In this document: positions 10,168 to 14,939 of the stretch, in pieces | Layout of the letters: each line of letters begins with the position of its first letter | Numbering within the stretch: position 1 is the first letter of the stretch | Sequence record: PX306536.1 | Length of the DNA: 14,939 bases | Direction: 5' to 3' (one strand) | Source: a phage | The notes under the pieces: generated by a model | What the model saw: only the letters and a program-made list of their open reading frames with translations | Told to the model about the DNA's origin: nothing | Databases searched by the model: none | Position numbers and translations under genes: made by a program

Positions 10168-10440
10168 ATGCCCTTCGGTTTAATCGTTATTGGAATCATC
10201 CTTGCAATAGCCGCTTACCGCGATACGCTTGGCGAATTGTTTAGCATCATTAAGGACGTTTCAAAAGATGCTAAGGGGTTTGGCTATTGGGTATTGGCGG
10301 CGGTTATTTTGGGATTCGCGGCAAGTATCAAGCCAATAAAAGAGCCGGTTAATGCGTTTATGATTTTGCTGATGATTGTTCTACTAATCCGCAAGCGTGG
10401 CGCTATTGACCAAATTTCTAACCAACTAAGGGGCAGCTAA
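10168..10440 (+). CDS. XVIII: Membrane DNA-delivery protein P18, 90 aa
   Basis: Strong RBS GGAGGGA (10153-10159); two hydrophobic segments; size matches PRD1 P18. Confidence 0.75.
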   Translation: MPFGLIVIGIILAIAAYRDTLGELFSIIKDVSKDAKGFGYWVLAAVILGFAASIKPIKEPVNAFMILLMIVLLIRKRGAIDQISNQLRGS

Positions 10441-10604
10441 TGGGCGAGTTTGGCAAAACCCTAATAACGATTGTGACGGCTATTATTGGCGTTGCAATTA
10501 TTGCCGTTATCGTGTCACAGCGAAGTAATACGGCTGGCGTGATTCAATCCGCCACAAGCGGATTTTCCAATATCCTTAAATCGGCGCTTGCGCCTATCAT
10601 TTAA
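10440..10604 (+). CDS. XXXII: Membrane DNA-delivery protein P32, 54 aa
   Basis: TAATG overlap with XVIII, RBS AAGGGG; transmembrane helix followed by NTAGVI motif; paralog of the next ORF. Confidence 0.7.
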   Translation: MGEFGKTLITIVTAIIGVAIIAVIVSQRSNTAGVIQSATSGFSNILKSALAPII

Positions 10605-10616
10605 AAGGTGAATGAC

Positions 10617-10823
10617 ATGAATGATTTTGTTGGCCCTATCGTTACCGTTTTGACCGCTATTATCGGCGTGGCAATTCTTGCCGTGCTGGTTAGCCGCAAC
10701 AGTAATACCGCTGGCGTTATCAAGGCCGGTTCCGGTGGCTTTTCCAGTATGCTAGGCACGGCGCTTTCGCCTGTTACTGGTGGCACTGGTTTTGCCATGA
10801 CCAATAATTACAGCGGTTTTTAA
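10617..10823 (+). CDS. XXXIV: Membrane protein P34, 68 aa, paralog of P32
   Basis: ATG at 10617 with RBS AAAGGTGA; the track's 10608 start is a GTG. Shares TAIIGVAI-x-AV-x-VS-x-SNTAGVI with P32. Confidence 0.7.
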   Translation: MNDFVGPIVTVLTAIIGVAILAVLVSRNSNTAGVIKAGSGGFSSMLGTALSPVTGGTGFAMTNNYSGF

Positions 10824-10832
10824 GGGGGTAAC

Positions 10833-11087
10833 ATGGCACTGATTAATCCGCAATTTCCATACGCGGGGCCGGTGCCGATTCCCGGCCCTGCCCCTACCGA
10901 AACCATGCCGCTTTTGAATTACCGGGTAGAAGGCCGCATTGCTGGTATTCAGCAGGCGCGGCAGTTTATGCCGTTCCTGCAAGGGCCGCACCGGGCGGTA
11001 GCCGAACAAACCTATCACGCGATTGGTACAGGTATTCAAATGGGGCAAACATTCAATCAGCCCTTGATTAACACTCAAGAGGGCTAA
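10833..11087 (+). CDS. XXX: Minor capsid protein P30 (capsid-stabilising / tape-measure-like), 84 aa
   Basis: 84-aa Pro-rich extended protein with RBS AAGGGGG upstream; size matches PRD1 P30. Confidence 0.75.
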   Translation: MALINPQFPYAGPVPIPGPAPTETMPLLNYRVEGRIAGIQQARQFMPFLQGPHRAVAEQTYHAIGTGIQMGQTFNQPLINTQEG

Positions 11088-11089
11088 GG

Positions 11090-11200
11090 ATGAAAACCGC
11101 CATTTTTATATTGGCTGTAATGTTTGCGGCTTTGCTTTGGCTAGGCCGCGAGCATTGCATTTTGTGCCAATGGTTCAAACGCATTTCAAACGGGGCTTAA
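11090..11200 (+). CDS. Small membrane protein, 36 aa (unnamed ORF)
   Basis: ATG at 11090 following GAGGG; transmembrane helix FILAVMFAALLWL; exactly fills the XXX-XI gap. Confidence 0.4.
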   Translation: MKTAIFILAVMFAALLWLGREHCILCQWFKRISNGA

Positions 11201-14829: not shown

Positions 14830-14939
14830 CTATCGCTTTTCCGTTTGTGATAGTTCGGGCCTATCGGATGCAGGGGGTATTGACAGACGGAAATAAAAAT
14901 GTTAGGGGCGCGGGTAGGTGGGGAGGGGCACGTATCCCC
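14830..14939. repeat. Right inverted terminal repeat (110 bp), genome terminus ending CCCC
   Basis: Exact reverse complement of positions 1-110. Confidence 0.95.

Follow-up and report, generated by a model that had tools for sequence, protein, structure and literature searches.

P32 and P34 of a PRD1-like phage: an old tandem pair of PRD1_DD paralogues, probably retained as distinct subunits for DNA delivery

PRD1_DD proteins in tectiviruses and the genome examined

A published list of DNA-delivery proteins comprises P7, P14, P11, P18, P32 and P34 (PMC6750898). Both P32 and P34 are members of the family PF11087 (PRD1_DD) and of phrog_8052, such that their paralogy is already contained in public family databases, and neither of these two models separates a first, short paralogue class from a second, long class with a tail. 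Beyond PRD1 itself, Caruso et al. 2019 (PMC6950372) reported two PF11087 homologues in the deltatectiviruses WheeHeim and Forthebois, where the gene was called ‘duplicated’, and also placed gp17 and gp18 of phage GC1 under PF11087, while PRD1_DD genes have been drawn on the maps of PRD1-like metagenomic genomes (Yutin et al. 2018). Unlike P32 and P34, the copies in these two Streptomyces phages (gp22 and gp28) are not adjacent, and Toil, a related phage, has just one (PMC6950372). The WheeHeim and Forthebois copies were not recovered by tblastn with P34 and are therefore more distant. In GC1 (Gammatectivirus), a 55-aa gp17 and a 71-aa gp18 form a PRD1_DD tandem which lies right after a P18-like gene of 87 aa, with the major capsid protein encoded upstream; gp17, like P32, is short and has no tail, and gp18 carries a tail as does P34, although GC1 belongs to another genus, has another host and its two proteins are only ca 42–58% identical to P32 and P34. 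The GC1 paper does not discuss gp17 and gp18, and no published statement of the similarity of P32 and P34 in PRD1 was found in the literature searched. With regard to function, the involvement of P32 in DNA entry is the subject of Grahn et al. (2002, J Virol 76:4866), as indicated by the title of that paper in the reference list of PMC3782422.

The window analysed here is the whole of PX306536.1, a stretch of 14,939 nt that, because it is bounded by a perfect 110-nt inverted terminal repeat (at 1–110 and 14830–14939), is a complete linear genome. It is that of an alphatectivirus (PRD1-like) which aligns over its entire length with PRD1 (97.5%), PR772, PR5 and others; its top full-length match is Burkholderia phage vB_Bco-CSP1 at 97.9%, and no whole-genome match of at least 99% was found among the phage collection records. 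The genome is thus that of a slightly different isolate from PRD1, and its P32 and P34 proteins are without differences, being 100% identical by tblastn to those of PRD1 (NC_001421) and encoded at the same positions. In NC_001421 the gene order is P3-P22-ORFx-ORFl-P18-P32-P34-P30-ORFq-P11, and the coordinates of genes XXXII and XXXIV are identical in PX306536.1. The near-identical sequence, the synteny and the setting, a linear genome of 14.9 kb bounded by inverted terminal repeats, identify the two genes as orthologues of alphatectivirus XXXII and XXXIV. They lie, moreover, where PRD1_DD genes are expected to lie, within the structural operon, adjoining P18 and following P3, the gene of the double-jelly-roll capsid protein. 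An Rfam scan of the whole 14,939-nt genome found no RNA families. The features of the locus are as follows.

10168–10440, plus strand: gene XVIII, protein P18, 90 aa, a multi-pass membrane protein (annotation)
10440–10604, plus strand: gene XXXII, protein P32, 54 aa (open reading frame; ‘membrane DNA delivery’ in the NC_001421 annotation)
10605–10616, plus strand: spacer of 12 nt between P32 and P34, with the P34 ribosome-binding site AAGGTG (sequence read directly)
10617–10823, plus strand: gene XXXIV, protein P34, 68 aa (NC_001421 annotation)

The original prediction of adjacent reading frames of 54 and 68 aa at 10440–10823 is therefore borne out, the two being PRD1 genes XXXII and XXXIV. 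The ATG of P32 overlaps the stop codon of P18 (TAATG). P34 appears in a mechanical list of open reading frames with a GTG start at 10608 (71 aa), but its annotated start is the ATG at 10617 (68 aa), 6 nt past the ribosome-binding site, and this start agrees with the MND... N-termini of homologues. Two reading frames on the opposite strand (10601–10804 and 10752–11078) were set aside as non-coding shadows, since substitutions follow the pattern expected of the plus-strand frames and they are annotated in no record.

Similarity, predicted fold and age of the pair

P32 and P34 align by BLASTP over 53 residues without gaps, 29 being identical (55%) and 45 positive (85%), with an E value of 5e-20. 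An earlier description of their transmembrane (TM) and post-TM segment as nearly identical suits the core at residues 13–35, where 19 of 23 residues are the same, and is too strong for the pair overall, given the 55% identity; the wording of the proposed motif also needs amendment, as the common motif is GFS and not SGFS and the gap between VS and SNTAGVI is of two residues, not one. Residues 1–54 of each protein cover positions 1–54 of the PF11087 model, with E values of 4.1e-34 (116.5 bits) for P32 and 7.6e-34 (115.6 bits) for P34, against a gathering score of 46. Both have the features of the family, in which one N-terminal TM helix is followed by a G-V-A...V-S-x-x-x-x-T-x-x-V...A-x-x-P core and in which columns G17, V18, A19, V25, S26, T31, V34, A49 and P52 are invariant in 52 sequences. 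A match of P32 to SecG (PF03840) was discarded as compositional; at 16.4 bits it falls below the gathering score of 29.2 (E 0.0097) and covers the TM region only. At the level of the DNA, a repeat search finds a direct repeat of two blocks, 37 and 72 nt long, both of which keep the same register.

10471–10507, paired with 10648–10684, plus strand: duplication remnant, TM-coding block, 86% identical in a 177-nt register
10524–10595, paired with 10701–10772, plus strand: duplication remnant, post-TM block, 71% identical in a 177-nt register

AlphaFold2 models built from family alignments predict much the same fold for the two proteins. In P32 (pLDDT 79) a helix at residues 3–28 is followed by a second at 31–49 with no tail; in P34 (pLDDT 73) helices at 5–28 and 31–49 are separated by a two-residue break, and from about residue 50 there is a tail, rich in Gly, Thr and Asn, which is modelled with low confidence. 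The first helix has a maximum 19-residue hydropathy of 2.8–2.9 at residues 7–26, as befits a classic TM segment, and the second has a hydrophobic moment that is moderate in P32 (up to 0.52) and lower in P34. A profile search of the PDB found no relative of P32 or P34 among solved structures.

The codons give an indication of the age of the pair. P32 and P34 are 64% identical in nucleotide sequence, with dS 1.01, dN 0.36 and omega 0.36, the last falling to 0.21 in the TM-hinge core, and of their 29 identical residues 17 use the same codon. In the alphatectiviruses PRDsepia and PRDwine the dS between the paralogues is 1.4–1.5. When each protein is compared with its counterpart in these two phages, P32 shows one amino-acid change at dS 0.7–1.0 (omega ~ 0.01), and P34 is 84–85% identical (omega ~ 0.16), the neighbouring genes having omega values of 0–0.11. 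Across all 75 alphatectivirus records P32 is at least 95% identical by tblastn, and a tblastn search with P34 has, among the matches listed, two places in each such record, which are P34 itself and a cross-match to P32. The duplication is thus old and has been preserved by selection on the protein, with both copies under purifying selection. A more general statement, that P32 is always the more constrained of the two, was considered and dropped; it is true of the PRD1 cluster, with omega at 0.01 for P32 and 0.16 for P34, but is reversed in the contig L089 (CANRNG010000038.1, 14,932 bp), where the P32 orthologue is 70% and the P34 orthologue 85% identical. This contig is a more divergent alphatectivirus-like genome that is absent from the phage collection.

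Two other accounts of the likeness of P32 and P34 need to be set against an old duplication. Both proteins are short and are dominated by an Ile/Val/Ala-rich TM segment, such that two unrelated hydrophobic peptides might come to resemble one another through their composition. The Smith–Waterman score of P32 against P34 is, however, 153, a value never reached in 20,000 shuffles of full P34 (mean 28.2, SD 5.3, maximum 67), nor in shuffles with the hydrophobic block held fixed (mean 38.5, SD 6.6, maximum 74; z 17.5), and the post-TM part by itself scores 81 against 21.4 ± 4.2 in its shuffles (z 14). With scores 14–24 SD over composition- and segment-preserving shuffles, with no other pair among the nine module proteins (P22 to P11) scoring above 38, and with a profile family that spans both proteins over their full length, a compositional artefact can be given practically no credence. 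The original prediction was to fall if the similarity proved non-significant against a shuffled control, and by this test it clearly stands. The second account takes the homology as given and makes it young, either as a recent tandem duplication specific to alphatectiviruses or by way of recent gene conversion through which the copies have stayed similar. The adjacency and common orientation of the copies would agree with this, as would the 86% DNA identity over the 37 nt of the TM-coding block and the observation that in a few metagenomic genomes (L055/L057 and L059) the paralogues are mutually closest in their N-terminal half. It is nevertheless very improbable, since dS is ~ 1.0 here and higher in other alphatectiviruses, the short and long layout recurs in GC1 and in several metagenomic genomes, the closest non-alphatectivirus relative of P32 is the first, short copy of another genome (L072_1, 64%), and the closest relative of GC1 gp17 is P32. 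In other words, the tandem duplication that had been proposed from the sequence is upheld, and only its description as local is not, if by this is meant recent or confined to one lineage. Likewise, the reading of P32 and P34 as tandem paralogues, each a single-pass membrane protein in a membrane/DNA-delivery block, is supported by BLASTP, the shuffles, PF11087 and the annotation, and their paralogy is a correct observation that was already known.

Copy number and paralogue classes across tectivirus-like genomes

To place the pair among its relatives, 80 IMG/VR loci, other loci and PX306536.1 were scanned with the family HMM and near-duplicates were removed, which left 73 non-redundant tectivirus-like genomes. 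One PRD1_DD copy is present in 28 of these, two in 37 and three in 8, and the copies are nearly always in tandem and co-oriented. In 83 of 86 loci a P18-like reading frame ends no more than 60 nt before the first copy, and P3 capsid domains are found upstream in L003 and L005 also. No evidence of PRD1_DD outside tectivirus-like elements came from scanning 185,579 species genomes, the only 10 loci found all being on MAG contigs of 1.3–17 kb, none of them longer than a tectivirus genome. Several of these contigs (L089–L093 and L095, 11–17 kb) sit in MAGs labelled Erysipelothrix, Saccharibacteria, Nitrosopumilaceae archaeon, Bryobacteraceae and Dehalococcoidia; they are probably mis-binned genomes of free viruses, and not evidence of the host.

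Searches with the two proteins differ greatly in their yield, P34 finding 587 homologues, many of them on contigs of 13–19 kb, and P32 only 8, from which it follows that P34 is near the family consensus and that P32 is derived. When copies are compared across genomes, the nearest neighbour of a copy is the paralogue in its own genome in only 6 of 98 cases and lies in another genome in the remaining 92. In the 37 two-copy genomes the columns that discriminate first from second copies are 45 (Ile against Ala/Ser) and 47 (Lys against Gly), together with the C-terminus at columns 54–56, where the first copy often stops after 53 and the second has Thr-Gly-Gly and a tail. None of 2000 swaps of the copy labels within genomes exceeded the summed mutual information of the copy classes, and leave-one-genome-out profiles oriented 33 of the 37 pairs correctly, that of PX306536.1 included (P32 falling on the first-copy side by +7.3 bits and P34 on the second-copy side, at −4.4 bits), although these permutation and binomial figures, coming from some 54 aligned columns in genomes that are mutually related, overstate the certainty and give the direction only. 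It is the second, or P34, class that single-copy genomes resemble. L055/L057 and L059 hinted that the TM segments of one genome might evolve in concert or co-vary, an idea that was rejected as a general rule; mean identity is 0.56 within and 0.53 between genomes, and the own paralogue is nearest in just 6–8 of 98 copies.

A third PRD1_DD class is apparent in uncultured tectivirus-like genomes, marked by a pair of Cys residues usually some 10–12 residues apart around ‘ALSPVTG’ and by a C-terminal S-[ST]-[IV]-[TS]-F. Cys occurs in 21 of 140 PRD1_DD copies, most of which fit this class, and P32 and P34 have none. A disulfide, if formed by the pair, could be informative about topology. Members of the class are found at the following places.

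L003, 3479–3700: third (Cys-pair) class
L042, 4214–4414: third (Cys-pair) class
L045, 4343–4540: third (Cys-pair) class
L053, 4215–4415: third (Cys-pair) class
L039, 4233–4445: third (Cys-pair) class
L075, 4220–4456: third (Cys-pair) class
L032, L054 and L084: third (Cys-pair) class, at the first-copy position

The duplication might also be thought to have happened independently and repeatedly across tectivirus lineages, with the short ‘ILK’-type first copy arising by convergence. Copy number does range from 1 to 3, arrangements such as DD-gene-DD-DD in L003 and DD-P18-DD in L082 are varied, some pairs are most alike within their own genome, and a resolved tree cannot be had from sequences as short as these; yet the nearest neighbours of nearly all copies lie in other genomes, profiles drawn from other genomes tell first from second in most pairs, and shared ancestry of the classes is the simpler explanation, such that repeated duplication appears quite unlikely as a general account, and it is possible that recurrent independent duplication accounts for part of the variation in copy number. 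A separate matter is whether two classes of common descent also differ in what they do, or whether P34 is a spare or dosage copy of a tube subunit, functionally redundant with P32 and with no distinct role of its own. The predicted folds are alike, a single copy suffices in 28 of the 73 related genomes, and neither experiments on P34 nor a P34 phenotype were found in the searchable literature. In spite of this, redundancy is unlikely, since the class-specific residues and the C-terminus are consistent across distant genomes, purifying selection acts on both copies, and P32 was singled out by experiment for DNA entry although P34 was present, to judge from the title of Grahn et al. (2002) as cited in PMC3782422.

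Predicted topology and role in DNA delivery

The reading preferred here is, therefore, that P32 and P34 are ancient tandem duplicates of the PRD1_DD family, both under selection, which probably serve together with P18 as non-redundant subunits of DNA delivery. On this reading, a tandem duplication older than the split between alphatectiviruses and gammatectiviruses would have given rise to P32 and P34, each of which would consist of an N-terminal TM helix, a conserved polar hinge of the form S-x-x-S/A-N-T-x-x-V and a second helix. P34 would have kept the ancestral Gly-rich C-terminal tail, and P32 would be the derived, tail-less form encoded directly after P18. The two would then act as non-redundant, subfunctionalised subunits with the multi-pass P18, and the three proteins together would turn the internal membrane of the virus into the proteo-lipid tube that delivers the genome. 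Nonsense mutants of P32 are reportedly non-infectious. As for P34, its homology to P32 and its annotation suggest that it belongs to the same delivery assembly, and the two proteins may form a hetero-oligomer; the PRD1_DD family can do without such a heteromer, as is evident from the single-copy genomes.

The likely orientation of the two proteins can be deduced from the charges flanking the first helix, the family mean net charge being −0.5 in the N-terminal flank and +1.0 in the flank after the TM segment. By the positive-inside rule, this distribution suggests that the C-terminal part would be cytoplasmic during assembly, and it would therefore come to lie at that leaflet of the virion membrane which faces the capsid.

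A broader proposal, which is put forward tentatively and is less likely than not, is that a P18-like protein with one to three PRD1_DD paralogues is the conserved core of the tube machine. The P32 class (short, with Lys-47 and tail-less) and the P34 class (with the Gly-rich tail) would here make up a defined hetero-oligomer, P34 would be ancestral and indispensable, and the Cys-pair class would be a further specialised subunit. What the analysis adds to the family databases is modest, namely that the duplication is ancient and conserved in position, that it is P34, and not the better-studied P32, which resembles the ancestral single-copy form, and that the paralogues nearly always have P18 as a physically linked neighbour. 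With regard to the composition of the PRD1 membrane nanotube, P18, P32 and P34 offer a testable list of subunits.

Further downstream, two small features may be recorded. ORF q (11090–11200) is 36 aa long as against 37 aa in PRDsepia and PRDwine and differs from theirs at many positions, whereas the genes flanking it hold 84–98% amino-acid identity, such that ORF q looks like a fast-evolving small membrane reading frame. P11 (11202–11825) has eight consecutive glycines right after its N-terminal hydrophobic segment.
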